Below are positions 45,127 to 63,612 of a stretch of 64,000 nt of DNA, in pieces (position 1 is the first letter of the stretch; every line of letters begins with the position of its first letter). The DNA is from Burkholderiales bacterium (GTDB lineage Bacteria > Pseudomonadota > Gammaproteobacteria > Burkholderiales > Usitatibacteraceae), in contig JANYBL010000057.1 of the NCBI GenBank assembly GCA_025360815.1, positions 141-64,140 of the forward strand, written 5' to 3'. The position numbers and the translations under genes were made by a program. The notes below the pieces were generated by a model. The model saw nothing but the letters and a program-made list of their open reading frames with translations, was not told the DNA's origin and did not search any database.

Positions 45127-46653
45127 ATGCCAACAACAAATGCCGCTCCAACAAAAACCGTAGACGCCGTCAAGCCATGCTTGCTTATTGTCGATGACGA
45201 TCCGTTGATTAGCGAAAGCCTGGCATTTGTGTTGGCGGCGGATTTTAAGGTAGAGGTAGCCGAATCTCGCAGCGAGGCCATTGCGCTGCTTAAAAGTGGG
45301 CGCTTCAGGCCAGCGCTTGCATTGATTGATCTAGGATTGCCGCCATTGCCTGATCTGCCAACTGAAGGTTTCAAACTGGTGGGGGATTTGCTTTCTTGGT
45401 CACCCGACATTCGTATTTTGGTGTTATCCGGGCAAAATGAGGAATCCAATGCCCGCCGCGCAAGGGCGCTTGGCGCCGCTGAATTGGTGCCCAAACCTTG
45501 CGAACCGAGCCATTTGCGGCGTCTTTTGCTGTCGGCTTTGGCGGGGAAAGACGTAGCCGACGCCACCGAAAACGACGACCGACAACAAGGCTTGATCGGT
45601 GACAGCTTGCCGATGCGCAAGCTTAAAAACCAGATCGATCTTTACGCATCTTCCGTCTTTCCAGCGCTGATTGAGGGCGAATCGGGCAGCGGTAAAGAGC
45701 GTGTGGCAAAAGCACTACACGATTTGAGCCCTCGTGCGAGGCTACCGTTTTTGGCGCTCAATTGCGCGGCGATTTCGGCCAATTTGGTCGAGCCCACATT
45801 ATTTGGCTACGCAAAAGGCTCCTTTACGGGCGCCGCGGCCGCCAAATCAGGTTATTTTGAAGACGCCAGTGAAGGCACGTTGTTTCTCGATGAAATTGGC
45901 GAGTTGCCGCTGGAATTGCAGCCAAAATTATTGCGGGTGCTTGAAAACGGCGAGTTTCAGCGGGTCGGTGAAACCCAATCCCGGCAGGCGCATGCGCGCA
46001 TCGTGGCCGCCACCAATCGTGATTTGAAAGCCGAAGTCAAAGCAGGACGTTTCCGTGCGGATCTCTACCACCGGCTTTCGGTGTTTTCGATTTTGGTGCC
46101 GCCGCTGCGGGATTGCGGTGATGACAAACTAAAATTGATGGATCATTATCGCGCGCAATATGCGGCGAAATATGCGCCAAAATATGCCCCTACGTACACG
46201 TCGGTACATAGCAATGCTAAAGCGATGCAGCCATTTAATTTAGATCTAGAGGCGCGCCAAGCATGGCTCCAATACGGATTCCCGGGCAACGTGCGGGAGC
46301 TAAAAAATATCGTCATTAGGCTCACGGCGAAGTTTTCCGGCTACACCGTCTCGCCAGCCGATTTGTTGCAGGAGTTTGAGCCTGAAGCGGATGCGATGCT
46401 TAGGGCGCAGCAAACGATGCCGATGGCGCCTCAAGCCGCGACAGGTGAATCTAGGTTGCCGAGTTGGCTCGACGCACGCGCTGATATCGAGAAAAATGCC
46501 AACTTTGATTTGGGCACCAAATTGCGCGAGATTGAGCTTCAGTACATCGATGCGGCTATTGCGGTTGCCGAGGGGAATATGTCGCATGCGGCACGAATAC
46601 TCGGAGTTTCGCGTTCTACTCTTTACAGCCGCATCGAGGCACTAAAGCATTAA
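45127..46653 (+). CDS. Sigma-54-dependent response regulator (NtrC family, PrsR-like receiver)
   Basis: The receiver reads LLIVDDDP...ALIDLGLPPLPDLPTEGF. In the AAA+ domain, Walker A is GESGSGKE, the GAFTGA variant is GSFTGA, and GFPGNVRELKN is present. The C-terminal Fis-type HTH is HAARILGVSRSTLYSRI. The ATG is at 45127; the track uses a TTG at 45112. Confidence 0.85.
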   Translation: MPTTNAAPTKTVDAVKPCLLIVDDDPLISESLAFVLAADFKVEVAESRSEAIALLKSGRFRPALALIDLGLPPLPDLPTEGFKLVGDLLSWSPDIRILVLSGQNEESNARRARALGAAELVPKPCEPSHLRRLLLSALAGKDVADATENDDRQQGLIGDSLPMRKLKNQIDLYASSVFPALIEGESGSGKERVAKALHDLSPRARLPFLALNCAAISANLVEPTLFGYAKGSFTGAAAAKSGYFEDASEGTLFLDEIGELPLELQPKLLRVLENGEFQRVGETQSRQAHARIVAATNRDLKAEVKAGRFRADLYHRLSVFSILVPPLRDCGDDKLKLMDHYRAQYAAKYAPKYAPTYTSVHSNAKAMQPFNLDLEARQAWLQYGFPGNVRELKNIVIRLTAKFSGYTVSPADLLQEFEPEADAMLRAQQTMPMAPQAATGESRLPSWLDARADIEKNANFDLGTKLREIELQYIDAAIAVAEGNMSHAARILGVSRSTLYSRIEALKH

Positions 46654-46796
46654 GCGTAATAAACATTAAAGGCTCTAGAATAATGCAGGCTTTATAATGT
46701 TTTTTGATGTTGCAGTACAGTTTCCCAGCCGCCGGCACACTTCTATGTTCTGAGGTCAGCACCTTCAGTCGAGCACACCCTGAAATTTTAAAAACC

Positions 46797-48365
46797 ATGA
46801 CGATGTATCTTGAGCATTTCGGCTTTACCGAAGCACCTTTCAAAATCACGCCGCACACTGAGTTTTTTTTCGCGGGGGCAAATCGTGGTGAAACCCTCGA
46901 TGCCTTAATCTACGCCATCACCAGCGGTGAAGGCATGGTTAAAGTGACTGGCGAAGTTGGTGCTGGCAAAACCATGTTGTGCCGCGTGCTGATGGAGCGG
47001 TTGCCGAAAACAGTTGAAACCATTTATCTTGCCGTGCCTTCGCTGTCGCGAGACGAGTTGCTCGCGGTTATTGCGGGCGATTTAGGTATCGACACACAGG
47101 GCGGCAACACCACCAAGCTGGTGCGAGCGTTGCAAGAACGGCTGATTGAAATTCATGCTGAAGGCAAGCAGGTCGTTGCGCTGATTGACGAGGCCCATGC
47201 CATGCCACTCGAGACGCTGGAACAAATTCGCCTGCTGTCGAATCTCGAAACTAGTCACGATAAATTGATGCAAATTGTCCTGTTTGGCCAGCCGGAGTTG
47301 GACCAGCACTTGATGCTGCCACACATGCGCCAGCTAAAGGAACGCATTACACACAGTTTTAATTTGTTGCCGCTTCCGGCGCACGACATCAAGGATTATC
47401 TGGATTTTCGGCTGCGGGCAGCAGGCTATAAGGGGGCTGATTTATTTGGCCCCGCATCGCTAGAGTTGATCGCCGACGCCTCCGAGGGCTTAACACGCCG
47501 CATAAATATTTATGCCGACAAAACCTTGCTGGCCGCCTATGCTTCCGGCACTCACACCGTTACCGAAGATCATGTCCGCGCGGCGATTAGCGATACGCAA
47601 ATTTTGCTGCCAGAAATCCCGAGCCAGAACTGGTTATTTTGGTTATCCGTCGCCACTGCTTTGCTGGTCGGGTCGGGCTTGGGATTTCTCGTGGGGCGCA
47701 TGACCACGAAGTCACCTACAGCCAGTGCAGAAATTGTGCAAAACCTTGTCTCAAAGCCGATTATTGTGGCGCCGGTACCAACGTCGGCTGCCGTGCCTAG
47801 CACTACTATCGCCTCGGCCCCAGCCCCCGGCGCTCCGCCGCCGACTCTTGCTACCTCGGCATCTGGATTAGCGCCTGCGGCAGTTAGTGAGCCCGCGACG
47901 ATGCCATCGTCCGGCGCCTCAACTGGTGCACCGACCAATGCTGCAGTCAGCAATGACTTCGCGCCCACACTGAGCAAAACGCTATCCACCGCCAGTGACG
48001 CACCAAAACGTGTAGAGGCCGTTGAAAAAGACTGGCTCCATATCCGCATGCAGGCCGATTTAAAACGATTGCGTTCTCTCAAAGCCTCGAACTACGCGAT
48101 CCAACTCATGACGGCCGATGCCCGCGAAAAATCGGCGATTGAAAATTATTTGCGGGCTTTGAGTCGGGAGCTCAACCCTGATCGCGTCATGATTTACCCG
48201 ACAGGAACCGATGAAAATCCGCGCGTTAGTGTGCTTTATGGAAGTTACACTGACCGTGCAGATGCCAACGGTGAAATTTCCAGCCTACCCACCAAACTAC
48301 AAAAATTTTCACCTTATGCACGCTCGATGCAGGTAATTCGCGACGATATTCGCCCTGGACAATAG
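46797..48365 (+). CDS. MshM/ExeA(GspA)-like AAA ATPase fused to a TM segment, a Pro/Ala/Ser-rich linker and a SPOR-like domain
   Basis: MYLEHFGFTEAPFKITP...GEGMVKVTGEVGAGKTMLCRVL is the ExeA/MshM N-terminal pattern. The TM segment is NWLFWLSVATALLVGSGLGFLVG. The C-terminus is NYAIQLMTADAREKSAIENYL...VSVLYGSYTDRADA. Confidence 0.8.
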   Translation: MTMYLEHFGFTEAPFKITPHTEFFFAGANRGETLDALIYAITSGEGMVKVTGEVGAGKTMLCRVLMERLPKTVETIYLAVPSLSRDELLAVIAGDLGIDTQGGNTTKLVRALQERLIEIHAEGKQVVALIDEAHAMPLETLEQIRLLSNLETSHDKLMQIVLFGQPELDQHLMLPHMRQLKERITHSFNLLPLPAHDIKDYLDFRLRAAGYKGADLFGPASLELIADASEGLTRRINIYADKTLLAAYASGTHTVTEDHVRAAISDTQILLPEIPSQNWLFWLSVATALLVGSGLGFLVGRMTTKSPTASAEIVQNLVSKPIIVAPVPTSAAVPSTTIASAPAPGAPPPTLATSASGLAPAAVSEPATMPSSGASTGAPTNAAVSNDFAPTLSKTLSTASDAPKRVEAVEKDWLHIRMQADLKRLRSLKASNYAIQLMTADAREKSAIENYLRALSRELNPDRVMIYPTGTDENPRVSVLYGSYTDRADANGEISSLPTKLQKFSPYARSMQVIRDDIRPGQ

Positions 48366-48904
48366 GCGACGGAGTCATTTATTGTTACTCATATTCCGTT
48401 GTGCCACCGCTTCTAGAGCCGCTTGAACTTCTGAACGTGTCCTGGAAACCTGGCATGCGAAGAAACGTAAAAATGGCCCGTTTCCATAACTAAAGTAATT
48501 TTTGCGATAGTGCTCACAAGCCATTGCTTTTGTTGGCAATTCGACTTATAAAGTAAGCTAAGATGCACCGCCAAAGAAGGGGTAATGTACATTGCGGTCG
48601 TCTGGGCAATTTTTGGGCAAACCATAAAACGTCAACGCACATAAAATCAGGCGACCTCAACAGCATGCTCAAATCACTGCATAAAATTAGTTCGTTCTCG
48701 TCTCACGTATCGTCCGAGTTTGCGCTCGGGTCTGCGTTTCAGCCGGTTTCCCCGACTAGGCTGCCGTCTTTTTCCCGCAACTTAATATTGAGATATGCTA
48801 AACAGACAACAGCGGCTGACCGGACAGCAGTGGCTGACCGAAAAATAGCGGCCAAACGAAAAAATGGGTGGCTTTTTCCAAAGCTGAAGGAGTTGAAATT
48901 TTTC

Positions 48905-50911
48905 ATGATGCAACATCAAAAAGCGCCGAGTGTTCCATTACCAATGAAAAAATTTGGCCGCATCCTTTTCGCTTTCGGCTTGGGAGTTGCCGTCGCCCTG
49001 GCGCTTGCGAGCTGTGGTACCGCCCCAGTTGCACGTGTGGACGGGCACTTACGTAGCGATGGCGTTGACGGGATCATCGACGGTAGTGATGCTCGAAAGT
49101 CCGGTACGAGCGCGACACAACGCGCGTCGGGCAACGTACCGCAACCGGTTAGCCAAGTGCCGCTGCCGCCGCCGCCGCAGGCGCGTATCGATGAAATCCG
49201 CTATTCAGTTACGGTCAAAGATGTACCGGTGCAAGATTTGCTGTTCGCCATCAGTCGCGATACCAAAGTCAATATTGATGTTCATAATGGCATAGAAGGC
49301 CGCGTCACCTTAAACGCGATTGACCAAACACTAAAGCAGATTCTGACGCGCGTCGCCAAACAAGTGGATATGCGTTTTGAAGTCGACGGTCCGAACTTGG
49401 TGGTGATGCCCGATTCACCCTATTTGAAAATGTATAAAGTTGACTACGTCAATATGACGCGTGACTCATCCGGCTCGATCGGCATCCAAACTCAAGTGGT
49501 GGGCCCTGCTGGTGTAGGAGCAACCACAGGTGGTGGCACGCAGAACAGCACCCAATTGAAAATCGACAACTCGTCGAAAAATCGTTTTTGGGAGAGCTTG
49601 GACAAAAACATCAAAGAGCTACTACGTGAGACCGACAAGCAACTGCCAGAGGGTAGCTCTGAAACCTTTGTTCGTGATCAATCACAAGGCGCTTCACAGA
49701 CTAATCGCAGCCAAACGAATGTCCAACGCGGCACCGCGCGCAGCGGTGGCAGCAGCGCGAAAACGAATGCCCGCACTGACATCACCGGCCCTGGCCTGTC
49801 TGAGAATCAAGTCGAATCGCAGTCCAGCTCGCAAACACTCACCTTCCGCGAAGCCGCGTCGGTCATTATTAACCCCGAAACCGGAACCGTTTCGGTTCGG
49901 GCATCGGCACGTCAGCACGAAAAAATCGCCGAGTTCATTACCCAAGTTGCAGGCTCCGCCAGCCGCCAGGTGCTGATTGAAGCAACCGTGGTTGAGGTCA
50001 CGCTAAGTGATAATTACCAATCCGGAGTGGATTGGTCGGCGTTGGGTTTAAAAGGCGTGGGCTACTCTTTCACCCAAGCTTTCACCCCAACCTTGCTGTC
50101 AGATATCACCGGTGCGCCAACAACGAAGAATTTCGGTATTCAGTACAGCAATCCCAACGCGGCCGTCGGTGGTTCAATTTCAAGCAGCATTAAGTTGCTC
50201 GATTCATTTGGTACGACTAAAGTGTTGTCCAGCCCGCGTTTGACGACGCTCAACAACCAAACAGCCGTCATGAAAGTGGTTGAAAACAAGGTCTATTTCA
50301 CTGTCAAGGCCGAGGTTACTGCGGGCGCTGCAAACACCGCTGGCGTTGCCACGCCTATTATTTCCTACACATCCACACCCAATGTCGTGCCGGAAGGATT
50401 TGTAATGAACGTCACCGCGCAAATCAGCGAGGGCGACATTATTACGCTCAATGTGCGCCCCAGCATTACGCGAATTGTCAGCTATGTGAACGACCCGAAC
50501 CCCGATCTGGCGCGTGCCAACGTCATTAACAAAGTACCGCAAATTCAAACGCGCGAATTTGAAACCGTGCTGCGCGTGCCAAGCGGTCAGACCGCCGTAC
50601 TGGGTGGGTTGATGCAGGATAGTTTTGAAGGTCGACGCGATGGTCTGCCGGTCGTTTCACGCTGGAAAATATTTGGCGATGCCGTTAGCTATCGTAACGA
50701 TACGGGCCGAAAAACAGAGCTGGTCGTTTTCCTGCGTCCGCTGGTGATCAAAGATGCGAGCGTGGAGACCGATTTTTCGGAATATCGTCGATTGTTGCCA
50801 GACAAAAAATTCTTTAAGGAGGCGGAGCCCACGTTTCCCGTACTCTATCCGCCTACCGATACGCGCATCACGCCGGATGGCACAACATCACCAGTGAGGC
50901 CGACACCGTGA
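48905..50911 (+). CDS. Secretin (MshL/GspD/PilQ superfamily), probable lipoprotein
   Basis: The lipobox is LALASCG. The C-terminal secretin domain has VLIEATVVEV, TKVLSSPRLTTLNNQTAVMKV and VLGGLMQD...DGLPV...ELVVFLRP. Possible starts are ATG 48905 or 48944. The track start at 48563 is an extension. Confidence 0.85.
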   Translation: MMQHQKAPSVPLPMKKFGRILFAFGLGVAVALALASCGTAPVARVDGHLRSDGVDGIIDGSDARKSGTSATQRASGNVPQPVSQVPLPPPPQARIDEIRYSVTVKDVPVQDLLFAISRDTKVNIDVHNGIEGRVTLNAIDQTLKQILTRVAKQVDMRFEVDGPNLVVMPDSPYLKMYKVDYVNMTRDSSGSIGIQTQVVGPAGVGATTGGGTQNSTQLKIDNSSKNRFWESLDKNIKELLRETDKQLPEGSSETFVRDQSQGASQTNRSQTNVQRGTARSGGSSAKTNARTDITGPGLSENQVESQSSSQTLTFREAASVIINPETGTVSVRASARQHEKIAEFITQVAGSASRQVLIEATVVEVTLSDNYQSGVDWSALGLKGVGYSFTQAFTPTLLSDITGAPTTKNFGIQYSNPNAAVGGSISSSIKLLDSFGTTKVLSSPRLTTLNNQTAVMKVVENKVYFTVKAEVTAGAANTAGVATPIISYTSTPNVVPEGFVMNVTAQISEGDIITLNVRPSITRIVSYVNDPNPDLARANVINKVPQIQTREFETVLRVPSGQTAVLGGLMQDSFEGRRDGLPVVSRWKIFGDAVSYRNDTGRKTELVVFLRPLVIKDASVETDFSEYRRLLPDKKFFKEAEPTFPVLYPPTDTRITPDGTTSPVRPTP

Positions 50912-52569
50912 GCCTGCTGTTGGATGCCTTAAAGCGCGCTGAAGATGCTAAACGGTTAAAAAGAAGCGAAGCTTTAAATGGTGATTTGCTCGGCCACGAC
51001 GAGCCATCGGACACGGCGCTAACCTTGGATAACGCAGATCAATTGGCCGTTACGGTCCTTTCGTTAGAGGAGATGCATGCAGAAACAAAGTTGCCAACGA
51101 CATCGTCCGAATCAATTGCAGGAATATTTACGGAGACCTCGGCCAAAACAACATTGATTGATCCGACTGGGGCTGCGAGGTCTTTTTCGCTTGTCGATGA
51201 TGTAGTGCCACCGGCTCTCGTTGCAGCTCCCTCCCCCACGGCAACATCAACCGCAAGCCGCGCTGGGCGTGTCGACAAACCCTCGGCGCTATTGCGAGCG
51301 ACCGGAGCAACTAGCGCCGTCTCAAACCGCACCGCCAATAGCGCGCCCGCCGATTGGAGTGAAAGTGATATTGCCGACATTGCCAAAATCGAAGCCGAGC
51401 AACAGGCCAAACAAAGCGCACAACAACGGGATCAGCGTGACGCTGCGAAAAATATCTTCGCCGCAAAAAAAAATGTTCAGTCGGCGAGCGCTACTGCTTC
51501 CAAAACAAAGTGGCTTTTGCCGCTCATCGCCTTATTGGTTGTTGGAATTGGCGGGGGGGCATGGTATGTCTGGAACGAAGTAAACAAAGTATCGCAACCA
51601 TCTTGGCAGCAGACTGCGTCATCGCGGGCAGCATTGCCACAGCCATCGCTATCCAAAGTGCAGCCGAGCGGGGCAACTTTAACGCCGAGTGTCGCTACCG
51701 CTGTTGTTGCCTCGACGACCGCGCCGGCAACTACAGCGGCCACCGGGATCACCAGCCCAGCAGAACCGGCATCAGTTGACGCAGCTTTACCACCTTTGTT
51801 GCCGCCGCCAGCCAAAGAGATGCCGTTGCCCAAATTGGTGTCCGCGCCTACCGTTAAAAAATTATTTGAGGGTGAATCCCTTACCGAACGTGAGTTGCTC
51901 GCCAAGCGGCTGCAAGCATCGAGCGGCGCCAAGTCGGCCATTGAGGCGCCGGTGAGCTTGAAGCTTTCACAAACCATCGATGTGCCCAAGGTGAACCCGA
52001 CATTGCTCGCTGCTTACGCCGCGTTAAGCAAAGGCGATTATGCCGAAGCGAAGAAACGTTATGGCGACGTTGTCAGAACAGAGCCTTACAGCTTGGACGC
52101 GCAGTTGGGATTGGCAACAGCGGCGGCGCGAACAGGCGACAACGCAACGGCGGCAAAATTCTATCGACAAGCGCTTGCGCTTGACCCACGCAATGGCACT
52201 GCACTGTCCGGACTTATCGCCGTTAGCGGCGAAGTGCCCTCCGATACGCTTGAAACTGAGCTCAAAACATGGGTAGTGAAAAACCCGAATTCTGCGCCGC
52301 TTCAATTTTCCCTTGGCAATTTATACGCGGGCCAACGGCGCTGGACGGAGGCACAACAAGCTTATTTTGATGCGTATCGAATCGATTCAGTAAATGCCGA
52401 TTATTTATATAATTTAGCGGTCAGTTTGGATCAGCTTAATCAGTTCAAGTTGGCGCTCGATTATTATCAAAAAGCGTTGGCTCAACTCGGCCGCAGCGGA
52501 GGGCAATTTGATCGCGCATCGGTGGTTCGCCGGGTTGGCGAACTCAAAGCCAATCCCAAAGCGAACTAA
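50908..52569 (+). CDS. Bitopic TPR-repeat protein (MshN-like) with a GspB-like N-terminal motif
   Basis: The GTG start overlaps the secretin stop (GTGA). The N-terminus is MSLLLDALKRAEDAKR and the TM segment is WLLPLIALLVVGIGGGAWYVW. TPR repeats occupy the last ~200 aa. Confidence 0.7.
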   Translation: MSLLLDALKRAEDAKRLKRSEALNGDLLGHDEPSDTALTLDNADQLAVTVLSLEEMHAETKLPTTSSESIAGIFTETSAKTTLIDPTGAARSFSLVDDVVPPALVAAPSPTATSTASRAGRVDKPSALLRATGATSAVSNRTANSAPADWSESDIADIAKIEAEQQAKQSAQQRDQRDAAKNIFAAKKNVQSASATASKTKWLLPLIALLVVGIGGGAWYVWNEVNKVSQPSWQQTASSRAALPQPSLSKVQPSGATLTPSVATAVVASTTAPATTAATGITSPAEPASVDAALPPLLPPPAKEMPLPKLVSAPTVKKLFEGESLTERELLAKRLQASSGAKSAIEAPVSLKLSQTIDVPKVNPTLLAAYAALSKGDYAEAKKRYGDVVRTEPYSLDAQLGLATAAARTGDNATAAKFYRQALALDPRNGTALSGLIAVSGEVPSDTLETELKTWVVKNPNSAPLQFSLGNLYAGQRRWTEAQQAYFDAYRIDSVNADYLYNLAVSLDQLNQFKLALDYYQKALAQLGRSGGQFDRASVVRRVGELKANPKAN

Positions 52570-54537: not shown

Positions 54538-55740
54538 ATGGCTTCATTTGCATATCGCGCGATTGACCAAGAAGGAATGATGCAGCGTGGCAATGTTGAC
54601 GCCATGAATGCGGTCGACCTCGAATTGCGCCTGAGGCGACTCGGATTGGAGCTGATTACTTTTGAGTCGATCAACAAATCGAGCATGCTCAGGGCTAAAC
54701 GCATTAGTCGCAAAGAGCTAGTGACGTTTTGTTTTCACTTGGATCAATTGATGCGGGCCGGTGTGTCAATTATCGATGCCCTGACCGATCTGCGCGATTC
54801 AGCTGAAAACCCTGCCTTTCGTCAGATTGTCGGTAGTCTGTTGGAAGATATTGAAGGCGGTTTAACCCTTTCCAGCGCGATGAATAACCACCCCAGCGCG
54901 TTCGATCGCGTGTTTGTGGCGCTGATTAGTACCGGCGAGCAAACAGGTCAGCTACCTGAGGTCCTAACCAAACTCACCGAAAACCTAAAATGGCAGGACG
55001 AGCTTTCGGCACAAGTAACCAAAGCGATGACGTATCCACTTTTCGCAGGTACCGTCATTATCGGTGTGGTATTTGCGCTGATGATTTTTTTAGTGCCGCA
55101 GCTTGCCATCACCATGAAGGCCCTCACGCCCAATCCGCCGCCACAAACGATGGCGTTGATTGCAGTATCAGCTTGGATGAAAAACTATTGGTATCTCGTG
55201 ATCGGCGTGCCGATTATAAGCGGGGTCACGCTTTTTATCCTTGCCAAAACCAATGAAGAGGTGCGCTACCGGATTGATGCGCTGATGTTGAAGTTGCCGA
55301 TTGTAGGACCATTGACCACCAAAATTATTTTGGCACGATTCTCGACCTATTTTGCCCTGATGTACCAGTCGGGCATCGGCGTGTTGGACTGTATTCGCAT
55401 TTCGGAAAAAATTGTTGGCAACCGCGTAATTGAGGCTGGACTTCAGCGGGTTGGTCGCGAGATCAATGATGGCACCGGTATCACGCAAGCTTTTCAGAAC
55501 GTGCGGATGTTCCCGCCCTTGGTGATACGGATGTTGAAAGTGGGCGAATCGTCGGGCGGACTTGATACCGCGCTGCTCAATGTAAGCTATTTCTATAATC
55601 GCGATGTCAAAGAAATGATGGGCAGATTACAGGAAATGATCCAGCCTATACTCACCGTCGTGCTAGGCGGTATTCTGATCCTGATCTTAGTTACCGTGTT
55701 CTCACCGATGTACGACGTGATTTCTAAGGTGAAAACATGA
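54538..55740 (+). CDS. GspF/PilC-family inner-membrane platform protein (MshG-like)
   Basis: 400 aa with two T2SSF-like repeats (FCFHLDQLMRAGVSIIDAL; FSTYFALMYQSGIGVLDCI) and three TM segments. Confidence 0.9.
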   Translation: MASFAYRAIDQEGMMQRGNVDAMNAVDLELRLRRLGLELITFESINKSSMLRAKRISRKELVTFCFHLDQLMRAGVSIIDALTDLRDSAENPAFRQIVGSLLEDIEGGLTLSSAMNNHPSAFDRVFVALISTGEQTGQLPEVLTKLTENLKWQDELSAQVTKAMTYPLFAGTVIIGVVFALMIFLVPQLAITMKALTPNPPPQTMALIAVSAWMKNYWYLVIGVPIISGVTLFILAKTNEEVRYRIDALMLKLPIVGPLTTKIILARFSTYFALMYQSGIGVLDCIRISEKIVGNRVIEAGLQRVGREINDGTGITQAFQNVRMFPPLVIRMLKVGESSGGLDTALLNVSYFYNRDVKEMMGRLQEMIQPILTVVLGGILILILVTVFSPMYDVISKVKT

Positions 55741-55837: not shown

Positions 55838-57505
55838 ATGAAACACTTTCTTTACCTCACTAACGACAAGCTCATCACGCTCATCTGGAAATCGGGGCGA
55901 ATGGTTAGCCGTGATGTATTTCAAGTTGGCGAGGCCAATTCGAAGCAGTTCCGCGATTATTTGCTCAAGCATCGCGAGGTGCCGACGTATTTAGTAGCCG
56001 ATTTAATCGAGGAAGATTTTCGACTAGACACCATGCCACATTTACGCGGTGGCGATGCCGACACCGTGCTCAGCCGAAAACTGGGGCAGCTCTACCGCGC
56101 AACCACCTTTAGCCACGCCATCGTACAGGATCGTGAACCGGAAGGCCGTCGCGACGATAAGGTTCTGTATCACGCGATTACCAACCCCGATCTGCTTACG
56201 CCTTGGTTGGCTGCGCTGGAAACCAGCGAGGTACCTGTGGCGGGCGTCTATTCATCGCCGGTTTTGTCAGTTCATTTGCTCAACCAATTGGATACGATTC
56301 CCAATCATGCATTGGTGGTTACCATCGTGCCCGATTTTGGTCTTCGACAAACCTATTTCCAGAATAAGCTGATCAAATTTAGCCGTTTAACGCAGATTAT
56401 TTTTGATGAAGGCCGCTCGGTCGGTAGTTTGATCGCCGCTGAAATTAGCCGCACTTGGCAATATTTGGATAGCCTGCGTTATTTTAGCAATGGCGAAGCG
56501 CTAGAGGTATGCGTCTTGGTGCATGAGCGTGATCGTCCGACGATTGCCGAGGCGTTTCGCAGCTTTCCGTTGCTCAAATGCCGCTTCCTCGATATCACTG
56601 AGATCGCCAACAAAATCAAACTAAAGCAGGTCCCCACTACCTCGCACGCCGAAGAAGTGCTCGCCCACCTGTACGCCCAAAATCGGCTTGAAAATCATTT
56701 TGCTCAGCCCGACACCACTCGTTTTGCGGTCTTCCGCAACGCGCGTATTGCGCTTTATGCCGTTACCGCGAGTGCCCTTGCGGCAGGATCGGGTGCGGCT
56801 GGATTCAATCTATATCAAGCATCACAAATTTCGAAAGAAATTGACCGCCGCGATACCACTACCCTCGGCCTTCAAAGCGAATATCAAGCCATTTCTAATT
56901 CCCTCCGTGAATTGAAATTAGCATCGGGCACGGTGCGGGATTCCAGCATATTCTTTAACAGCCAAATCCGCCCGCAACCGGCCGCCCCAGGTGACTATTT
57001 GCGCGAACTAAGCAAGGCGATCGTTGACGCGCCCAAAGTGCGGCTTCTCCAAGTGGTCTGGGCGGTCGGCAATGACGCCAATGCCACTCCATTTTTTACA
57101 CCGATGCCAACCCCGCCGATATTGGATGTGATTTCAGAAACCAAAGCCGATACAAGTTCGCCTTCGGCAGTAGCAGCGATTCTAGGCTCCAGCGCCGGCG
57201 GCATCGCCGCAACCCAAGCCGCGGTGAGCGACCTCAACCCAGCAATGCCAGGTAATAAATTTCACATTGGCGTCATTGAGTTTGCGATGATCTCGTTTGA
57301 CGGCGATTTCCGCAAGCTGCTGTCTGAAATTGAAGTATTCAAAAATCGGTTTAATGAAATCCCCAACATTAAAGCGACCATCGTTACCTTGCCGCTTAAC
57401 TTGGACACCACCGCGACGCTAAAGTCCGGTGCTAAAAAGGACACTGTTGACGCCCGTGAAGCGCGGTTTGTGATTAAGGTTGTCAGTACGGTGGTTGGCA
57501 CATGA
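55838..57505 (+). CDS. Hypothetical assembly protein: cytoplasmic PilM/GspL-like domain + TM + PilN-like periplasmic domain (MshI-like architecture)
   Basis: 555 aa with a single TM segment (ALYAVTASALAAGSGAAGFNLY) near residue 310. A coiled segment and a periplasmic domain follow. The call rests on position after the platform gene and on architecture, not on recognised sequence motifs. Confidence 0.45.
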   Translation: MKHFLYLTNDKLITLIWKSGRMVSRDVFQVGEANSKQFRDYLLKHREVPTYLVADLIEEDFRLDTMPHLRGGDADTVLSRKLGQLYRATTFSHAIVQDREPEGRRDDKVLYHAITNPDLLTPWLAALETSEVPVAGVYSSPVLSVHLLNQLDTIPNHALVVTIVPDFGLRQTYFQNKLIKFSRLTQIIFDEGRSVGSLIAAEISRTWQYLDSLRYFSNGEALEVCVLVHERDRPTIAEAFRSFPLLKCRFLDITEIANKIKLKQVPTTSHAEEVLAHLYAQNRLENHFAQPDTTRFAVFRNARIALYAVTASALAAGSGAAGFNLYQASQISKEIDRRDTTTLGLQSEYQAISNSLRELKLASGTVRDSSIFFNSQIRPQPAAPGDYLRELSKAIVDAPKVRLLQVVWAVGNDANATPFFTPMPTPPILDVISETKADTSSPSAVAAILGSSAGGIAATQAAVSDLNPAMPGNKFHIGVIEFAMISFDGDFRKLLSEIEVFKNRFNEIPNIKATIVTLPLNLDTTATLKSGAKKDTVDAREARFVIKVVSTVVGT

Positions 57506-58311
57506 GTGTGATTTTTTCAAAAAAAGGTTTCCGCGCAATGCGCTTGTCGGTCTTGGTTACGCTATCGGGGGTGGCGGTAGCAACTTTTTTGGCAGGCACT
57601 AGCTATTGGTATTGGCAGTCCGAAAAAAACGGCAACCAGACTTCTTCGGCGCGACAGCAGGATACCCGTACCCGTCTTGAAACGGCCCGCCGTGAACGGG
57701 ATGATCTTCGTGATTCAGAGCAAACCTACAAAGTGTTGACCACTCGAGGCGTGTTTCAGCCCGAACAGCGGCTGGAGTTGGTAGAAGCGTTCGCAGCGCT
57801 TAAAACTCGTCATCAACTTGTTGCATTTGAATATGAAGTTCAGCCGCAACGGCCACTTAAGCTAAGCGCCAGCGTGAGTCTGCCAGCGGTAGATGTATTC
57901 GGAAGCCGGATCAAATTTAAAGCCCGTGCCAACCATGACGGAGACCTTGTGGCATTTTTAGATGAATTCCCGCGAATGCAGCGCGGATTTTTCCCGCTGG
58001 ATCGTTGTGTTATCAAACGAACCAGCGAATCGGAATCCGCCAAAAATATTGCGTCCGTAACCAAGGCGACTGGCCTACAAGCCGCAGTGACAGCGATGGC
58101 ATCTTCAACGGGACTCAACACACCGCAATCCAGTGTTGATGCGGATGAGACCAGCTTGGAATCCATTCTCAAGCCACGTGCGCCGCAGGTCAGCAAAACG
58201 GATTCTGCAGCGCTTGAAGCCGATTGCTCGCTGGAATGGATAACGATGGTCGATAAACAGAAAATCGCTGAATTGCCCAAGCAAAGCAGCGGCGCAACGC
58301 GTTCTCAATAG
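57502..58311 (+). CDS. Hypothetical bitopic protein, PilO/GspM/MshJ-like architecture
   Basis: The ATGA overlaps the upstream stop. An N-terminal TM segment (LSVLVTLSGVAVATFLAGTSYWYW) is followed by a charged coiled segment (RTRLETARRERDDLRD) and a ~110-aa domain. Confidence 0.4.
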   Translation: MSVIFSKKGFRAMRLSVLVTLSGVAVATFLAGTSYWYWQSEKNGNQTSSARQQDTRTRLETARRERDDLRDSEQTYKVLTTRGVFQPEQRLELVEAFAALKTRHQLVAFEYEVQPQRPLKLSASVSLPAVDVFGSRIKFKARANHDGDLVAFLDEFPRMQRGFFPLDRCVIKRTSESESAKNIASVTKATGLQAAVTAMASSTGLNTPQSSVDADETSLESILKPRAPQVSKTDSAALEADCSLEWITMVDKQKIAELPKQSSGATRSQ

Positions 58312-58324
58312 CGAATTACTAACC

Positions 58325-58897
58325 ATGCTGCGATTAACTCTCCCCACTCTTCACGTTTGCGCGCTGGCTCTTGCAGCCGCGAGCGTAGGCGGGGTCTTTC
58401 AAACTAGCGCTATCGCTGCGCCTATTGCGCTTAACCCGCCCGCTACGGTCAGTATGGTTAGTGACGCAGCGTCCAGCAACAGTGTCGCCGTTCCGCCACC
58501 GCCTAAAAATATAAGGAACACAGCCGAGCCAATATCAGGAACCCTATTTTTTACCCGAGAACAACGCGAACGAATTGACCGTGCTCGCAAGCAAGGCGAT
58601 TTCGTTGAAGTCGAAGAGGCGGTTGTGGCGGAGAAGCCGCCCCGCCCGGTGATTAACGGGTTTGTTAAGCGAAGTGATGGCGCCGACGCGGTTTGGATCA
58701 ATGGCCAGCGCATGAACCTTGCAGCGGACGCGGCGGACTCTATTAGCGCCACTGATGTTGGCAGCAGTGCCGCCGCGCAGCGCGTGCAGTTCGTCAGCTC
58801 TTCGGCGAAATTGATGACCCAAACGTATTCATCAGCAAACCGCAAAGCAGTAAAAAAAATGAAGCGGTCGCCCATAAAAAAAGCAAAAAGAAAATGA
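58325..58897 (+). CDS. Hypothetical secreted/periplasmic protein (possibly MshK/PilP-like)
   Basis: The signal peptide is MLRLTLPTLHVCALALAAASVGG...AIAAP. The motif INGFVKRSDGADAVWINGQ lies in the middle and the tail is Lys-rich. Confidence 0.35.
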   Translation: MLRLTLPTLHVCALALAAASVGGVFQTSAIAAPIALNPPATVSMVSDAASSNSVAVPPPPKNIRNTAEPISGTLFFTREQRERIDRARKQGDFVEVEEAVVAEKPPRPVINGFVKRSDGADAVWINGQRMNLAADAADSISATDVGSSAAAQRVQFVSSSAKLMTQTYSSANRKAVKKMKRSPIKKAKRK

Positions 58898-60945
58898 CTA
58901 AGTTGGTGCGCGGCAAGGGTCAAAACCCGCCTGCGCGGGGCTTTGTGTTTCTGCTGATCATGCTGACGATTTTGGCAATTGCAGGCATTGTTTTTTTGAA
59001 TAGCACTGCACAAAATGCCCTGTCGACACAAAACCAATTGAGGCGCGATCAGCTTTCAACCGGCGTGCTCATAGCGGCTAAGAATGCGCTTCTTGGGCGA
59101 TTAATGAGCCCGGCCAACAATACACTTAGACCGGGCATTCTGCCTGCACCGGATTCTCTTGCCAACGGAACTTACGACGGCAAATCCGATACGCAATGCT
59201 TAGGCAATTCTTTAAACGGGCTTCCCGGTGTGGGCGCCAACTCACTCGTCAAGCGCTGTATTGGAAAAGTCCCGTGGTTAACGTTAAGCCTCGACTTGGC
59301 AAACCCGGCAGTAGAAGATCCGCTTGGTCAGGTGCCGTGGATGGCAATATCAGCAAATTTAGCGCCTGATGAAGTTACTTGCCTGCCCGTCTTCAACTCT
59401 GACGTGGCGAATCTAACTTCGCCGGTAACGCCGTCTTGTGCAGGCGTTCCGGGGGTGCAACCGACTGCACTTCCGCATCCATGGCTAAAGGTCTTTGACG
59501 AAGCCGGCAATTTACTTTCAGACAAGGTCGCTATTGTCTTAATTTTGCCGGGCGCACCAATTCAAACAGAAACAAGAAGTCAAAATAGAACCCCTTCTAG
59601 TCCAGGCAATCCATCGGATTATCTGGATTCGATTAACCTTCCGTTGGGTTGTTTGGTGGGGTGTACGCTTTTTGATAATGCAAATTTGACGAATCAATTT
59701 GTCATGATTAAGCCTGGCACTCGCTATCCGTCTGACGCGCCGAACGTCGCCAAACGAGGGGCGGCTGTTCCCTTTAATGACACGCTCATCTACCTCACAA
59801 TTGACGAGGTTATGCCTTATGCAGAGCGGAGAGTTGTAGGACAAATGGCATTAGCGCTTCGTGACTTGAAAGCCAATAGTTCGTTCAGCGCACATCCTTA
59901 TCCTTGGCTAGCTTCTACAAACACATTGCCCACTGCAACAACCAGCCTAGTTCCGCAAGCAGGAATCTATTACGGCCATTTTCCATTTATGACGGACTCG
60001 GCTGCCGGCGCGAATTCCGATTATGCGACTGATTTCGATTGGTCAATCACAGGGCTCATCGATGGCACACTACCAACTTGTGTCAGAATTAATTCTGCGC
60101 CAAATGTCTATATAAAGCCAACACTGCTCAATTCGCTTACGCCCCCTCTCGCGACACCCAATTTGGCAAATGGCGCGGCCACGTCAAATGTTGGGCAATG
60201 TAGGTGGAAAGGGATAGGAAATGTTTCATGTGCACTACAAGCTGGAAAAAATATTACGACCAATTTTCCGGTAACGATGACCACCTATTCAAACAATACA
60301 TGCACCACGGCAACTGGCGCCACTACTTTGTCAATTGCGCGTGCGATAACAGCGCTTCAAATTGACGCAACATGCAGGACTGCGCCGCCGGTTGCACCTG
60401 TAATTAGCTATGTTTCTGCTAGTGCTTCTGATGTGCATCGTTGGAAATGGGCCTGTGGCATCGTTGCCAATACTTCGGCAGCCTCCATTGATGTTTCGGA
60501 TACGATCAGTAATATCGCGACATCATGGAATAGATTGCCTCTCTCAACATCCACTTCATCATTAGGAACGCCTACACAGATTACGGTTGACCGAATGATG
60601 TATCACCCCATCATGCCGGCATGGTTCCATGAAAATTTATGGTATCAAACAGCATTTGCCGCCGTTGCCCCGTCTGCCGCCGCAGCCAATACCTCCCCGT
60701 GTGGTAGCGGAATTAATTTTCTAACGACTGGCGGTGTTACCAAAGTTGAAGCCATCACTGCTGTAGCAGGAAAAAATCTAACCACCAACATACGACCTTC
60801 TTCGTTGATCACCGACTATTTTGAAGGCAATAATGCGCTTGGCAAAGGCGGCGTGATGCCAGGCATTTCTAACTGCGCTTTTGATACGGCGACTTCTCTG
60901 TCAACTGTTACGGCAAACGACCAGTTACAAGTGGTGTCACCTTGA
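58894..60945 (+). CDS. Large Cys-rich pseudopilin-like protein (non-canonical class III signal, no Glu5)
   Basis: The ATGA overlaps the upstream stop. The N-terminus is MTKLVRGKGQNPPARG/FVFLLIMLTILAIAGIVFL. The rest is 683 aa, Thr/Ser/Ala/Asn-rich, with 14 cysteines by my count. I recognise no family. Confidence 0.45.
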   Translation: MTKLVRGKGQNPPARGFVFLLIMLTILAIAGIVFLNSTAQNALSTQNQLRRDQLSTGVLIAAKNALLGRLMSPANNTLRPGILPAPDSLANGTYDGKSDTQCLGNSLNGLPGVGANSLVKRCIGKVPWLTLSLDLANPAVEDPLGQVPWMAISANLAPDEVTCLPVFNSDVANLTSPVTPSCAGVPGVQPTALPHPWLKVFDEAGNLLSDKVAIVLILPGAPIQTETRSQNRTPSSPGNPSDYLDSINLPLGCLVGCTLFDNANLTNQFVMIKPGTRYPSDAPNVAKRGAAVPFNDTLIYLTIDEVMPYAERRVVGQMALALRDLKANSSFSAHPYPWLASTNTLPTATTSLVPQAGIYYGHFPFMTDSAAGANSDYATDFDWSITGLIDGTLPTCVRINSAPNVYIKPTLLNSLTPPLATPNLANGAATSNVGQCRWKGIGNVSCALQAGKNITTNFPVTMTTYSNNTCTTATGATTLSIARAITALQIDATCRTAPPVAPVISYVSASASDVHRWKWACGIVANTSAASIDVSDTISNIATSWNRLPLSTSTSSLGTPTQITVDRMMYHPIMPAWFHENLWYQTAFAAVAPSAAAANTSPCGSGINFLTTGGVTKVEAITAVAGKNLTTNIRPSSLITDYFEGNNALGKGGVMPGISNCAFDTATSLSTVTANDQLQVVSP

Positions 60946-60959
60946 ACGAGGCCAGCAGC

Positions 60960-61823
60960 ATGAAAACCAGAGCCGCTGGATTTACCTTGATCGAAATTGC
61001 CATCGTATTGGTAATAATTTCTGTGCTGGTCACTATTGTCGCTGTTCCGCTTTCCACGCAACTTGAGCAAAAGCGGTTCGATGAAACGCAAAAGCAGTTA
61101 GAGGTTGTAAAAGACGCTTTGGTAGGTTTTGCTATTTCGAATGGTCGTCTGCCTTGTCCTGCCAGCGCGACCAGTTCGGCACGCGAGAGTTTTTGCTCAA
61201 ATGCCACTGGTGGCTGTGGCGCGGAAGTCTTGAGTTATGCCGCAGCGCCGCACGGTCGCTGCTTCGCGTCGAACGGGTTCATTCCTGCAAACACATTAGC
61301 TCTATCCCCCGTTGATGCACAAGGTTACATGGTGGATGCTTTTCTGAAAGCAGATAACATTAATCGCATACGTTACGCCGTGCCAGCCGTCACCGTTTCA
61401 ATCGTAAACGTGGGGTACACGGCAGCGCCTGCTAAGGATTATCAGGTATTCACTTCTACTGATGGTATGCGCAACACCACGATGGATAAAATAACTGCTT
61501 ATGCAGCGGGGCTGCTATTTATATGTCAAGAATCGCAAGCTGTGACAACCGTGTCGATCACTGGCTGCGGTGCAAGGACAGAATTGACGCGAGCGAGCCC
61601 AGCTGTCGTATTTTCGGTCGGTTCGAATGCAGAGGTGGCACTTGGCAATTTGAGCTCTGGCGGCGAAGCGAGCAATCAAACCCCAAATTCAGTCGCATTT
61701 TTCCAAGGGTCAAGGGTGGATAAACGCGGTGCAGCAACGCCCTATTATTTTGATGATCTTGTGACTTGGATTTCGCCCAACACACTTTTTCTAAGAATGG
61801 GGCAAGCGGGCAAATTACCCTAG
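60960..61823 (+). CDS. Prepilin-type N-terminal cleavage/methylation domain protein (large pilin or pseudopilin, ~287 aa)
   Basis: MKTRAAG/FTLIEIAIVLVIISVLVTIVAV is a canonical class III signal with Phe+1 and Glu+5. I count six cysteines. Confidence 0.85.
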   Translation: MKTRAAGFTLIEIAIVLVIISVLVTIVAVPLSTQLEQKRFDETQKQLEVVKDALVGFAISNGRLPCPASATSSARESFCSNATGGCGAEVLSYAAAPHGRCFASNGFIPANTLALSPVDAQGYMVDAFLKADNINRIRYAVPAVTVSIVNVGYTAAPAKDYQVFTSTDGMRNTTMDKITAYAAGLLFICQESQAVTTVSITGCGARTELTRASPAVVFSVGSNAEVALGNLSSGGEASNQTPNSVAFFQGSRVDKRGAATPYYFDDLVTWISPNTLFLRMGQAGKLP

Positions 61824-61832
61824 CTGACAAGC

Positions 61833-63554
61833 TTACTTGTTTGAAACCTCAAACCGAACTTGGCCGATCTCATTCGTCGCCAGCGTCAATAAATACCCCT
61901 GCTGCTCAGCCAGTCGCCGCGCCTGATACAGCCCTATCCCTAGCCCGCCTTGACGTGAATTGGCGATGGGGGCAACGAATAGCATTTCCAATTTCGCGCT
62001 TGGAATTGGGCTGCCGTCGTCTATGATGGCGAGCGAGGGCGCAGGTTCAGTGGAGAGTTCAATTCTAATGACCATATTGGGTTCGCGTTCTTTTTTCTTG
62101 CGAGCGTTTTCAAGGCAATTCTCCAGCACGGTGTCGAAGAGCGCAGTTGGAACGGTAACGTTCAAGTCTCCCCGTACCAGGAATGTCGCGCCACTTCCGG
62201 CATGCCGGGTGGTAACGTCGGCCCACCAGTCTTGTGCAGTCATGGCGACCCCGGTTCGGCCAATGTCGGGGTTCTGTAGCTTGTCGAGCGTGGTTTGCAG
62301 CCGCTTGCTGAGTTGCGGGAGTTGCCTGACCAGCATCGCCTCATAGCGGGAGGACTCACGGCGTTCCGGCAAATGTTGGCTCGCGTCTTGATGCGCAATG
62401 CCAGCGGATGTCAGCGCGTAAAGCGATTGCAGCAGGTTTTTAATATCGTGGGTCAGACGCGCACCAGTTTCGTGGACAGCTTGCATATAGGCGTTTTGTT
62501 TGAGCACTTGCTCGCGCCGCTTGCCTTCATAAAACTCGCCAATCACTTGCGCCAGCAGCCGAGCATGGAGAAACAGCGCAGGTGACAGCGGCATGGCAGT
62601 AAAAAAAGTGACGTCAAGCTGATGATAGCGAAAGCTCGCCGCATGCGCGGTCTTGATGCCAAAGGTGCCGGCTTTTTCGCCCCCCGAATTTCCTTCTTTT
62701 CCGCCGGTAGATCTCCATTCTCCGCCCATAATCCACGGGGTGAGCGCGACTTCCTGCATTGCATGCGCCAAAAATTGTGCCGAGCTACTCTCGCCCTCCG
62801 ACAATGCAGCAACACGCCGCATCCATAATTCAAACGGCATCCCTACCGACATTAAGTATCGCGAAAAATACGTTCGCAAACCTCCAAATCCCGCGCGCGG
62901 CCCCCACATAATCGACAGCACAAACAATGCGCCCGCAAACGACAGCACTGTCAACAACACCGCCTGAAAATATTGATTCTCCGTTACGCGCATGGCAGCG
63001 ATACTTCCCAGTACCAGCACTACCACCAGCTGAAATACAAAAAGGCTATAAAAAAAATCAAACACTTGGTTAGTCGCTTCGTCTTCGCCACGAAACGGCA
63101 GCACTAACATTGGGGACAACGTCAGTGGCAACAACATAAACGCGACACCGTAGATCCCCGCTGGCAAATTGCTGATTTTTAAAAGTGAAACCGGCACAGT
63201 CCACATCAATAGCACCGCAAATAAATAGAAGACCGCCACTAAATAAAACAGCCCGCGCCGCCCGGGCTGCAAAGTGAACACCTTACCGCCCATAATGCCG
63301 ATCAAAATCGCGATCCATGTCACTAGCATCCAGCCGGCGAGCGAGTACAGAACGACGGTGGTAATACCCATCAGCAATCCGACCGCGATGACGTTTAGCT
63401 CACGCTCCGCGCTAATGAATGGCTGCCATATCAAAAAAAGCCCGAAATGAATGAGCAGCCAGATGCGTTCAAAATCGCTTTCCGCCGGCGCCATCAGTGC
63501 GGCGTGCAGCGACAGCAACATGGCCAAGATCACCCACCGGCGCATCCTTAGCAT
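61833..63554 (-). CDS. Multi-TM sensor histidine kinase (PrsK-like architecture)
   Basis: The N-terminal ~260 aa hold about 8 hydrophobic segments. The H-box is THDIKNLLQSL and the ATP-binding motifs are DDGSPIP...GGLGIGLY. The start is either ATG 63554 (MLRMRRW) or TTG 63611. Confidence 0.8.
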   Translation of the reverse strand: MLRMRRWVILAMLLSLHAALMAPAESDFERIWLLIHFGLFLIWQPFISAERELNVIAVGLLMGITTVVLYSLAGWMLVTWIAILIGIMGGKVFTLQPGRRGLFYLVAVFYLFAVLLMWTVPVSLLKISNLPAGIYGVAFMLLPLTLSPMLVLPFRGEDEATNQVFDFFYSLFVFQLVVVLVLGSIAAMRVTENQYFQAVLLTVLSFAGALFVLSIMWGPRAGFGGLRTYFSRYLMSVGMPFELWMRRVAALSEGESSSAQFLAHAMQEVALTPWIMGGEWRSTGGKEGNSGGEKAGTFGIKTAHAASFRYHQLDVTFFTAMPLSPALFLHARLLAQVIGEFYEGKRREQVLKQNAYMQAVHETGARLTHDIKNLLQSLYALTSAGIAHQDASQHLPERRESSRYEAMLVRQLPQLSKRLQTTLDKLQNPDIGRTGVAMTAQDWWADVTTRHAGSGATFLVRGDLNVTVPTALFDTVLENCLENARKKKEREPNMVIRIELSTEPAPSLAIIDDGSPIPSAKLEMLFVAPIANSRQGGLGIGLYQARRLAEQQGYLLTLATNEIGQVRFEVSNK

Positions 63555-63612
63555 GTTGGCGGGCAAAGTTTGCAGAATTTTATGATCGATTGAATTCAAC
63601 GCGGTGCCCAAA

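Follow-up and report, generated by a model that had tools for sequence, protein, structure and literature searches.

Which machine is encoded by the gene cluster at positions 45112-63611, with a trailing segment to 64000, of a 64,000-nt stretch of Burkholderiales DNA (family Usitatibacteraceae; contig JANYBL010000057.1; hereafter the window), where assembly genes of a type IV filament are bracketed by a sigma-54 response regulator and a sensor histidine kinase? An open reading frame (ORF) listing of the window reproduced the twelve ORFs of this locus with unchanged coordinates and strands, namely the regulator and ten co-oriented genes up to 61823 on the + strand, followed by the convergent kinase (61833-63611) on the − strand. 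This confirms the arrangement described in the initial annotation, with the qualification that three genes (secretin, MshM-like and 293-aa prepilin) have start codons that need correction. Protein identities were assigned by using Pfam, NCBIfam and PDB sequence searches, hhalign profile comparisons, hydropathy, AlphaFold2 (AF2) models and Foldseek. From the genes present we predict, at a probability of roughly two in three, that the genes specify a complete type IV pilus machine of the MSH type, representing a distinct, unnamed paralogous subtype.

The first line of evidence is the conservation of the cluster. By tblastn, every long related locus carried the same series of genes, mlaF (on the opposite strand), response regulator, MshM, secretin, tetratricopeptide repeat (TPR) protein, MshE, platform and the 555-, 269-, 190-, 683- and 293-aa proteins; because this order is kept in every long related locus, the locus is not a chance assemblage. 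The same order was found in Thiogranum, Massilia and gammaproteobacterial metagenome-assembled genomes (MAGs). The MSH-like locus and its M-L-N-E-G-I-J-K-like order, as first proposed, were thus borne out and, judged from the sequences compared, the M-L-N-E-G-I'-J'-K' order is a conserved trait of the whole lineage. A scan for homologues of the 555-aa protein, using one genome per GTDB species, returned 170 species, of which the best 80 loci were described; carriers of the cluster thus number at least 170 species of Usitatibacteraceae and other Burkholderiales, and also include Gammaproteobacteria. The best 80 loci belong to Usitatibacteraceae, Burkholderiales and other Betaproteobacteria (one MAG being labelled just 'uncultured proteobacterium'), and include two complete carrier genomes, CP012157 and CP019169. 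Close homologues of the 555-aa protein run into the hundreds; all come from Betaproteobacteria, Burkholderiales and Usitatibacteraceae MAGs, are annotated as hypothetical and lack Pfam domains. Furthermore, a search of its profile against 1.84 billion representatives clustered at 50% identity gave 2180 matches at E ≤ 1e-3, of which 944 reached E ≤ 1e-30; among them, the named matches are 'hypothetical' except for one UniRef label mentioning a GspL cytoplasmic domain.

The second line of evidence, which bears on the paralogous status of the system, comes from Thiogranum longum (L085:2863-21554) and the related contig L089. In both, the variant cluster reads M-L-N-E-G-517-207-151-379-231 (the numbers being protein lengths in residues) plus a 201-aa pilin, and is followed on the same strand by a canonical msh cluster comprising a PilN-like protein, an MshJ-size protein, a T2SSB-domain protein, a secretin, an AAA_22 ATPase, a TPR protein and MshE; the canonical cluster immediately adjoins in L085, whereas L089 has ABC-transporter genes scattered about its last pilin gene. 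The window secretin is 47% identical to that of the Thiogranum variant versus 27% to the canonical one, and the window ATPase 67% versus 34% (the latter value covering the N-terminal ~240 residues present of the canonical protein). The canonical MshL and MshM of Thiogranum are in turn clearly closer to the window proteins than are E. coli GspD/HofQ or GspA. Since the variant set co-exists with canonical mshIJKLMNE in Thiogranum, the window set would represent a distinct paralogous subtype. A search of the literature on Usitatibacter pili and on MSHA systems in Betaproteobacteria found nothing relevant. Taken together, we consider the locus to be a widespread, uncharacterised paralogous subtype of MSH-type pili with unclassified protein families.

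The components of the secretin and motor modules carry the assignment to the MSH class. The MshM/GspA(ExeA)-like P-loop ATPase (46704..48365; AAA_22 97 bits, SPOR 19 bits), whose gene adjoins the secretin gene, has a single transmembrane (TM) segment at residues 312-330 and a periplasmic C-terminus that is weakly SPOR-like; its profile matched canonical Thiogranum MshM at an hhalign probability of 100% over 267 columns, compared with 64% for E. coli GspA. Since residue 34 is the first to align with the family, translation probably begins near 46797-46803. The lipoprotein secretin (48905..50911; Secretin Pfam 102 bits) is MshL-like, clearly scoring best against the MshL model TIGR02519 (228 bits, cut-off 250.2) versus 132 for GspD and 93 for PilQ, and the orthologous Thiogranum secretin exceeds the MshL cut-off at 272.8 bits. 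The secretin ORF from 48563 is over-extended, as most relatives cover just ~66-80% of the query; the start is most likely at 48905, with AAGGAG 12 nt upstream, or else at 48944, and either yields a lipoprotein signal ending ...LALASC. The MshN-like bitopic TPR protein (50908..52569; TPR families; hhalign 85% to Thiogranum MshN) consists of an N-terminal MSLLLDALKRAE helix, a TM segment at residues 203-221 and C-terminal TPR repeats.

The extension ATPase (52706..54421; T2SSE 437 bits) is of the MshE type, with an MshEN domain (63.5 bits) that passes the cyclic di-GMP motif model NF053729 at 58 bits (cut-off 38). The MshEN motif (window 52739-52897, ATPase residues 12-64) retains the exact 24+5+24 spacing together with its Gly and Leu positions; Pro replaces both canonical Arg residues (PLGQ.. 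and PLGK..) and Ser replaces the last Gln, the first Pro being invariant and the second nearly invariant across the family. In V. cholerae MshE, Arg9 and Gln32 were reported to be important for cyclic di-GMP binding (PMC5013675). From the motif as a whole, binding of cyclic di-GMP by the ATPase is plausible. The inner-membrane platform protein (54538..55740; MshG/GspF/PilC family) matched T2SSF at 169 bits in two stretches and has three hydrophobic segments.

MSH loci are single loci without a prepilin peptidase, defined by mshA, E, G, L and M (Denise et al. 2019; PMC6668835). By that definition, the locus contains E (with MshEN), G and M (beside the secretin) in the single-locus context, and comes close for L (228 versus 250.2 bits); no prepilin peptidase (peptidase A24) gene was found by family scans of the cluster or its flanks. 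The absence of the peptidase had been singled out as noteworthy; it is unremarkable, because MSH loci lack one as a rule (PMC6668835). MacSyFinder would probably label the locus MSH or 'generic'.

The same modules also provide arguments for a type II secretion system (T2SS) variant, in which a short periplasmic pseudopilus would push folded substrates through the secretin with GspA/GspB-like helpers. The platform has its best match to GspF (285 bits, below the cut-off of 424), and the ATPase scores nearly equally against GspE and PilB (525 and 523 bits, both under cut-offs); among PDB sequences, PilF/PilB (446-403 bits) outscore GspE (376 bits). Furthermore, the MshM-like protein has the architecture of GspA/ExeA (ATPase, TM segment, wall-binding-like domain), and MshEN-bearing ATPases also occur in a T2SS-type system of P. 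aeruginosa (PMC5013675). We nevertheless judge this reading unlikely: the secretin scores far higher against MshL than against GspD, GspC and the GspH-I-J-K set are missing, there are only three pilin-like genes, and no candidate substrate genes are conserved beside the cluster.

Between the platform and the pilin-like genes lie three genes whose products would form the alignment complex. Neither these proteins (555, 269 and 190 aa) nor the 683-aa protein described below gave a single Pfam or NCBIfam match, even at E ≤ 10. The 555-aa protein (55838..57505) was modelled by AF2 from 19 homologues (mean pLDDT 66) as an N-terminal alpha/beta domain, a helix at residues 295-316, a coiled coil and a C-terminal alpha/beta domain. 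Its N-domain has the actin-like ATPase fold, and Foldseek matched it to P. aeruginosa PilM (5eou, E 2.4e-6) and also to FtsA. The earlier description of this protein as a PilM/N-like fusion therefore stands at the level of fold but has no counterpart in sequence, as its profile gave no hhalign match to E. coli GspL, HofM/N or canonical Thiogranum MshI. Judged from the model, with a TM helix followed by a periplasmic domain, this PilM/GspL-like assembly protein would be the functional equivalent of MshI/GspL. The architecture is shared with GspL, and this likeness, along with the one UniRef relative named for the GspL cytoplasmic domain, is a further point for a T2SS variant. The bitopic 269-aa protein (57502..58311), in the position of PilO/GspM/MshJ, has a TM segment at residues 15-33 and orthologues in Thiogranum (99.3% probability) and Massilia (99.4%), and its profile found no match among canonical MshJ, GspM and HofN/O. 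The exported 190-aa protein (58325..58897), in the MshK/PilP position, has a signal peptide or hydrophobic N-terminus; it is poorly conserved, with orthologues in Thiogranum and Massilia at 95-97% probability and no profile match to MshK, GspC or HofP.

The window contains two pilin-like genes, of unusual kind. The 293-aa prepilin (60942..61823, probably starting at the ATG at 60960) has a canonical G/FTLIE class III signal, with N_methyl and IV_pilin_GFxxxE matches exceeding their cut-offs, and this signal is the sole canonical prepilin motif in the window; its profile matched E. coli GspG at 96% probability over 71 columns, which again speaks for a T2SS. The 683-aa pilin-like protein (58894..60945; no Pfam match) has an N-terminal helix without Glu5 (GFVFLLIML) and a large, beta-rich head that is rich in Cys and Trp. 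Its AF2 model (pLDDT 82.7, pTM 0.81) shows a 57-residue helix (15-71) followed by a large beta-rich body, for which Foldseek returned no significant match in the PDB (best E 0.04). The first ~150 residues of the 683-aa protein are paralogous to the 293-aa prepilin (hhalign 97.7%), and both share the motif AL-x-G-[FY]-A ... G-x-LPCP ... LPW-x-TLGL. The 683-aa protein is a candidate tip or priming subunit and adhesin, with which the 293-aa prepilin is probably paired as a minor pilin.

Comparison of the window with its closest relative, L001, revealed a sharp local divergence of these two genes. The DNA is 82-85% identical over the assembly genes and the kinase, whereas window segments 58994-60977 and 61156-61842, which encode the heads of the 683- and 293-aa proteins, have no DNA similarity to L001, so that only the segments coding for the N-terminal helices of the two proteins align. 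At the protein level, the 683- and 293-aa proteins are 40% identical to their L001 counterparts, compared with 87-100% for most neighbours and 68% for the 190-aa protein. The turnover looks, from this alignment, like cassette replacement of the heads. Such replacement fits surface-exposed, diversifying subunits, as in exposed pili, and argues against a purely periplasmic pseudopilus and hence against the T2SS variant. It also bears on the idea of a DNA-uptake (competence) pilus or another specialised pilus, with the large 683-aa subunit binding DNA or another ligand. Such a pilus would be in keeping with the generic type IV filament architecture, the novel head of the 683-aa protein and the co-existence with canonical MSH in Thiogranum, which suggests a non-redundant role. 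Hypervariable heads, however, argue against a conserved ligand such as DNA, and ComEA, ComEC and DprA-like genes as well as a retraction ATPase were lacking from the locus; we rate this possibility as very unlikely.

The initial annotation had noted that only two pilin-like genes are present and that an ordinary major pilin is missing. Both statements hold within the window but are incomplete for the system, as relatives have a third gene, beyond the kinase, that encodes a prepilin of 216-237 aa on the + strand, 330-650 bp beyond the kinase, with the N-terminal form MKSMK.QQSGFTLVEIAIVLVIIGLLLGGILKGQELINSAKVK. This prepilin gene was present in 13 of the 14 kinase-bearing relatives with enough sequence (L022 being the exception) and never adjoined clusters without the kinase. 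In Thiogranum, the orthologous pilin gene (hhalign 99.9%) directly follows the homologue of the 293-aa gene, without a sigma-54 promoter and without regulators. Because of this position in Thiogranum, and because 13 of the 14 kinase-bearing relatives carry the gene, the pilin is assigned to the system.

A sigma-54 scan of the related loci placed all strong sites just beyond the kinase. All 13 pilin genes are preceded by TTGGCA[CT]-N5-TTGC[TA], located 92-218 bp upstream of the start codon and scoring 9-11 of 11, and a palindrome, TGTCGA-N5-CCGGACA, lies upstream of the promoter, with a strict match in nine loci and near absence elsewhere in those loci. From these co-occurrences, the kinase, the sigma-54 promoter and the regulator appear to travel together with the pilin. 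Such control of a pilin gene in company with a polytopic kinase is a type IV pilus pattern, which also counts against a T2SS. Alignment with the 13 relatives identifies the last part of the window (63612..64000, + strand) as the beginning of the control region between kinase and pilin. From the kinase start to the window end are 389 bp; a block, GACTAACCCGAAC, is common to L002, L003 and the window, and within its last ~70 nt the window has a diverged copy of the palindrome, a match that is suggestive. The 'missing' major pilin is, judged from the relatives, an artefact of the window edge: the sigma-54 promoter and pilin gene of this organism are expected just past 64000, where the pilin, some 100-300 bp further on, would read MK..QQSGFTL[VI]EIAIVLVIIGLLLGG... 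behind TTGGCAC-N5-TTGC. Exact-protein look-ups with the kinase (three starts), the prepilin and the 555-aa protein returned no contig extending past 64000.

Several other features of these control regions were recorded. In 10 of the 13 relatives, a small ORF of ~28-31 codons encoding one hydrophobic helix (e.g. MKNTLNRIKLHDLAVAFILFGMAMGAFIK) lies between the sigma-54 promoter and the pilin start (L034:17090-17180, L005, L009, L017, L020, L023, L024, L037, L041 and L060); it is absent from L002, L003 and L078. In the window, a direct repeat, TAAACGAAAACGAG, in ~2.5 copies at 63620-63660 lies immediately upstream of the kinase start codon, and the strings TTGGCAA/TTGCCAA recur at 44851-45130, 48360-48570, 52560-52710 and 55735-55845, none of them with sigma-54 spacing. 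At L087:2822 and L085:2808, sigma-54-like promoters (TGGCTCGCAACTTGCA and TGGCGTGAATTTTGCT) precede the MshM-like gene by ~40-70 bp. A system-specific regulator is missing from both loci: no regulator gene is in view in L085, and the regulator/kinase pair downstream in L087, considered as a system-specific pair, was rejected as the glnA-linked NtrB/NtrC.

What, then, do the flanking regulators control? The NtrC-family response regulator (45112..46653, + strand, with an alternative start at ATG 45127) comprises a receiver (REC), an AAA+ domain with the GSFTGA loop and a Fis-type helix-turn-helix (HTH) domain (Pfam Response_reg, Sigma54_activat and HTH_8), and its PDB matches are of the NtrC family. 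The polytopic sensor histidine kinase (61833..63611, − strand) has 7-8 hydrophobic segments within residues 27-235 by hydropathy, a HATPase_c domain and an HDIKN H-box, with no match to Pfam HisKA, no PAS domain detected and no PDB sequence relatives. The pair had been likened to PrsR/PrsK. These are indeed the best curated families for both proteins, but the scores fall far below the cut-offs: the regulator reached 336.6 bits against PrsR (TIGR02915, cut-off 502.6), with NtrC close at 319.7 bits, and the kinase 46.2 bits against PrsK (TIGR02916, cut-off 300). The latter match covers residues 367-577 against profile positions 463-664 only, that is, the catalytic core, so that the claimed PrsK-like nature of the polytopic N-terminus found no support.

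As to their conservation, which had been named as a possible point of refutation, the regulator is a conserved neighbour, lying upstream in 35 of the 37 related loci (only loci with sufficient flanking DNA being counted), whereas the convergent kinase is confined to a sub-clade, the closer relatives, with 14 of the 37. In a distant gammaproteobacterial MAG, a sigma-54 regulator before the MshM-like gene is 43% identical to that of the window, compared with 34% for genuine NtrC, and the 555-aa homologue of the same MAG is just 25% identical to that of the window. In Massilia sp. MS-15 (L086:14513-16140), the last two genes of the system, which share a strand, encode a 219-aa regulator (REC and Fis HTH domains but no AAA+) and a kinase; the receiver of this regulator has a DLGLPPFP..EG insertion and scores 98 bits against PrsR versus 72 against AtoC.

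This last result is among those that could suggest a filament or secretion system under true PrsK/PrsR orthologues, linked to a PEP-CTERM/exosortase circuit for exopolysaccharide or protein sorting. PrsR, PrsK, TIGR03015 and PrsT are the top NCBIfam matches for four of the twelve proteins. However, all four lie under their curated cut-offs, most of them widely. The MshM-like ATPase has TIGR03015 as its best match at 218 bits (cut-off 324.5), and canonical MshM likewise has TIGR03015 as its best, at 221 bits; the TPR protein matches PrsT at 57 bits, below the cut-off, and generically. The TIGR03015 and PrsT matches were accordingly rejected as evidence for a PEP-CTERM link. Neither the 64-kb window nor the flanks of related loci yielded exosortase, PEP-CTERM or polysaccharide-export genes, and the sole sigma-54 promoter that consistently accompanies the pair is that of a pilin gene. 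The earlier association of the pair with PEP-CTERM/exosortase loci thus finds no counterpart here, and we hold such a circuit to be most improbable. In the PilS/PilR system, membrane pilin is sensed by PilS, a kinase with six TM segments, and PilR switches on pilA from its sigma-54 promoter (PMC6058289). A sigma-54 pair next to pilus genes, flagged as odd in the initial annotation, is therefore the PilS/PilR paradigm. Of the features of such a circuit, the polytopic kinase and NtrC-type activator are found in the window, and the sigma-54 promoter and activator site upstream of the pilin are found in relatives; by analogy, the regulators may work like PilS/PilR.

These observations can be combined into a scheme for an MSH-type pilus. 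The MshM/GspA-like ATPase and the MshN-like TPR protein would, by homology, help the MshL-like secretin to assemble through the cell wall. The MshE-type ATPase, possibly tuned by cyclic di-GMP, would drive the platform protein, and both would sit under the secretin via a divergent alignment complex of the 555-aa protein (recognised by its fold), the 269-aa protein (by its architecture) and the 190-aa protein (by its position). The 683- and 293-aa paralogues would prime or cap the filament, their variable heads probably forming an exposed adhesive tip. The shaft would be the 216-237-aa GspG-like pilin, with its gene past the kinase and outside the window; this gene would be transcribed from the sigma-54 promoter seen in relatives, its presumed activator being the NtrC-type regulator encoded first in the operon and controlled by the polytopic kinase, in a loop like PilS/PilR autoregulation. 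Other loci must supply the prepilin peptidase and any retraction ATPase, as is established for MSH systems.

Several points weigh against the assignment to an MSH-type pilus. The filament of the proposed subtype is a prediction from genes. Alignment proteins recognisable as MshI/J/K were not found, and the roles of the 269- and 190-aa proteins are assigned from size, topology and gene position, no similarity to PilO/GspM/MshJ or PilP/GspC/MshK having been detected. The platform is closest to GspF, the pilin N-termini (including that of the outside pilin) are GspG/GspH-like, and the 293-aa prepilin matches GspG over ~70 columns, which leaves a secretion role with some support. With Arg replaced by Pro in both half-motifs and Gln by Ser, the binding of cyclic di-GMP is uncertain. 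Consensus scans found no canonical sigma-54 promoter in 44000-62000, the promoter and major pilin are not visible in the window, and in 23 of the 37 related loci the kinase and pilin are not beside the cluster. Finally, the likeness of the regulators to PilS/PilR lies in architecture and promoter logic. A tentative possibility, which we place somewhat below an even chance, is that the locus represents a separate, unnamed type IV filament family, sister of MSH and widespread in Beta- and Gammaproteobacteria. It would have a replaced or unrecognisable alignment complex, a filament primed by just two paralogous giant LPCP pilins (one of them with a fold absent from solved structures) and, in some lineages, a PrsK/PrsR-related pair recruited for the PilS/PilR role. 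If so, running alongside a canonical MSH pilus in the same cell would imply a distinct function.

Type IV filaments play a central part in attachment, biofilm formation, motility, DNA uptake and secretion, and their classification rests on few model systems. Here an MSH-related machine is seen to occur throughout a large lineage, its most informative parts being annotated entirely as hypothetical proteins. Family databases and MacSyFinder models can gain new protein families from it, namely the 555-, 269-, 190- and 683-aa proteins, the 293-aa 'LPCP' prepilin and the 216-237-aa pilin. Furthermore, an MshEN domain with Pro in place of both Arg residues offers a test of how much of the motif cyclic di-GMP binding needs, and the regulators would be a case in which proteins related to PrsK/PrsR control a pilin in the manner of PilS/PilR.

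The surroundings of the cluster are of a different nature. An mlaFEDCB operon lies upstream of the regulator on the opposite strand, and family scans of the window proteins indicated that the rest of the window consists of housekeeping genes, among them those for a TonB-dependent receptor, lipopolysaccharide glycosyltransferases, an EPSP-synthase-family (murA-like) protein, histidinol dehydrogenase, aminotransferases, transketolase and polyamine genes. A 1183-aa tricorn-like protease (4912-8463; PD40 repeats, Tricorn_C1, PDZ and S41) is unrelated to the pilus locus. About 20 kb upstream of the locus, at 19542-24139, lie genes for a 915-aa hybrid histidine kinase with MASE1 and a 483-aa protein with an EAL domain; they are possible partners of the locus in cyclic di-GMP turnover.

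The locus can finally be set beside four known systems. With T2SSs that use GspA/GspB it shares an ATPase-TM-periplasmic protein, a GspL-like actin-fold protein, a GspF-like platform and GspG-like pilin N-termini, and differs in its MshL-like secretin, the absence of GspC and of the GspH-K set, its variable heads and its sigma-54 control of the pilus type. With PrsK/PrsR it has in common that these are the best-scoring curated families for both proteins and that both kinases are polytopic; a receiver insertion, DLGLPP...EG, which the initial annotation linked to PrsR, is present here and is presumably a further likeness. The differences are the scores (337 versus 503 bits and 46 versus 300 bits), the unmatched membrane domains and the lack of an exosortase context in the window. 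With PilS/PilR it shares a polytopic kinase without a large periplasmic domain, an NtrC-type activator, and, in relatives, a sigma-54 promoter plus palindrome before a pilin gene beside the kinase gene, in contrast to which the nearest curated families here are PrsK/PrsR, a PAS domain was not detected, the kinase has an H-box of the HDxKN type with HisKA unmatched, and the regulator is encoded first in the assembly operon, with 15 kb between it and the kinase.

The closest counterpart is the MSHA system of V. cholerae, with which the locus has in common an MshL-like lipoprotein secretin, MshM and MshN beside the secretin, an MshE with MshEN, an MshG platform and a single locus without prepilin peptidase or retraction ATPase. 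Unlike in MSHA, the alignment genes here come after M-L-N-E-G, MshM has a long, GspA-like homologue with a TM segment and periplasmic domain, and the I/J/K equivalents have no detectable similarity to MshI/J/K. There are only three pilin-like genes here, one of them encoding a 683-aa protein with a fold unmatched in the PDB, versus seven in V. cholerae, the mshBACDOPQ set. Furthermore, a sigma-54 two-component pair is attached to the locus, Pro replaces Arg in both MshEN half-motifs and, in Thiogranum, the paralogous cluster stands beside a canonical msh cluster.

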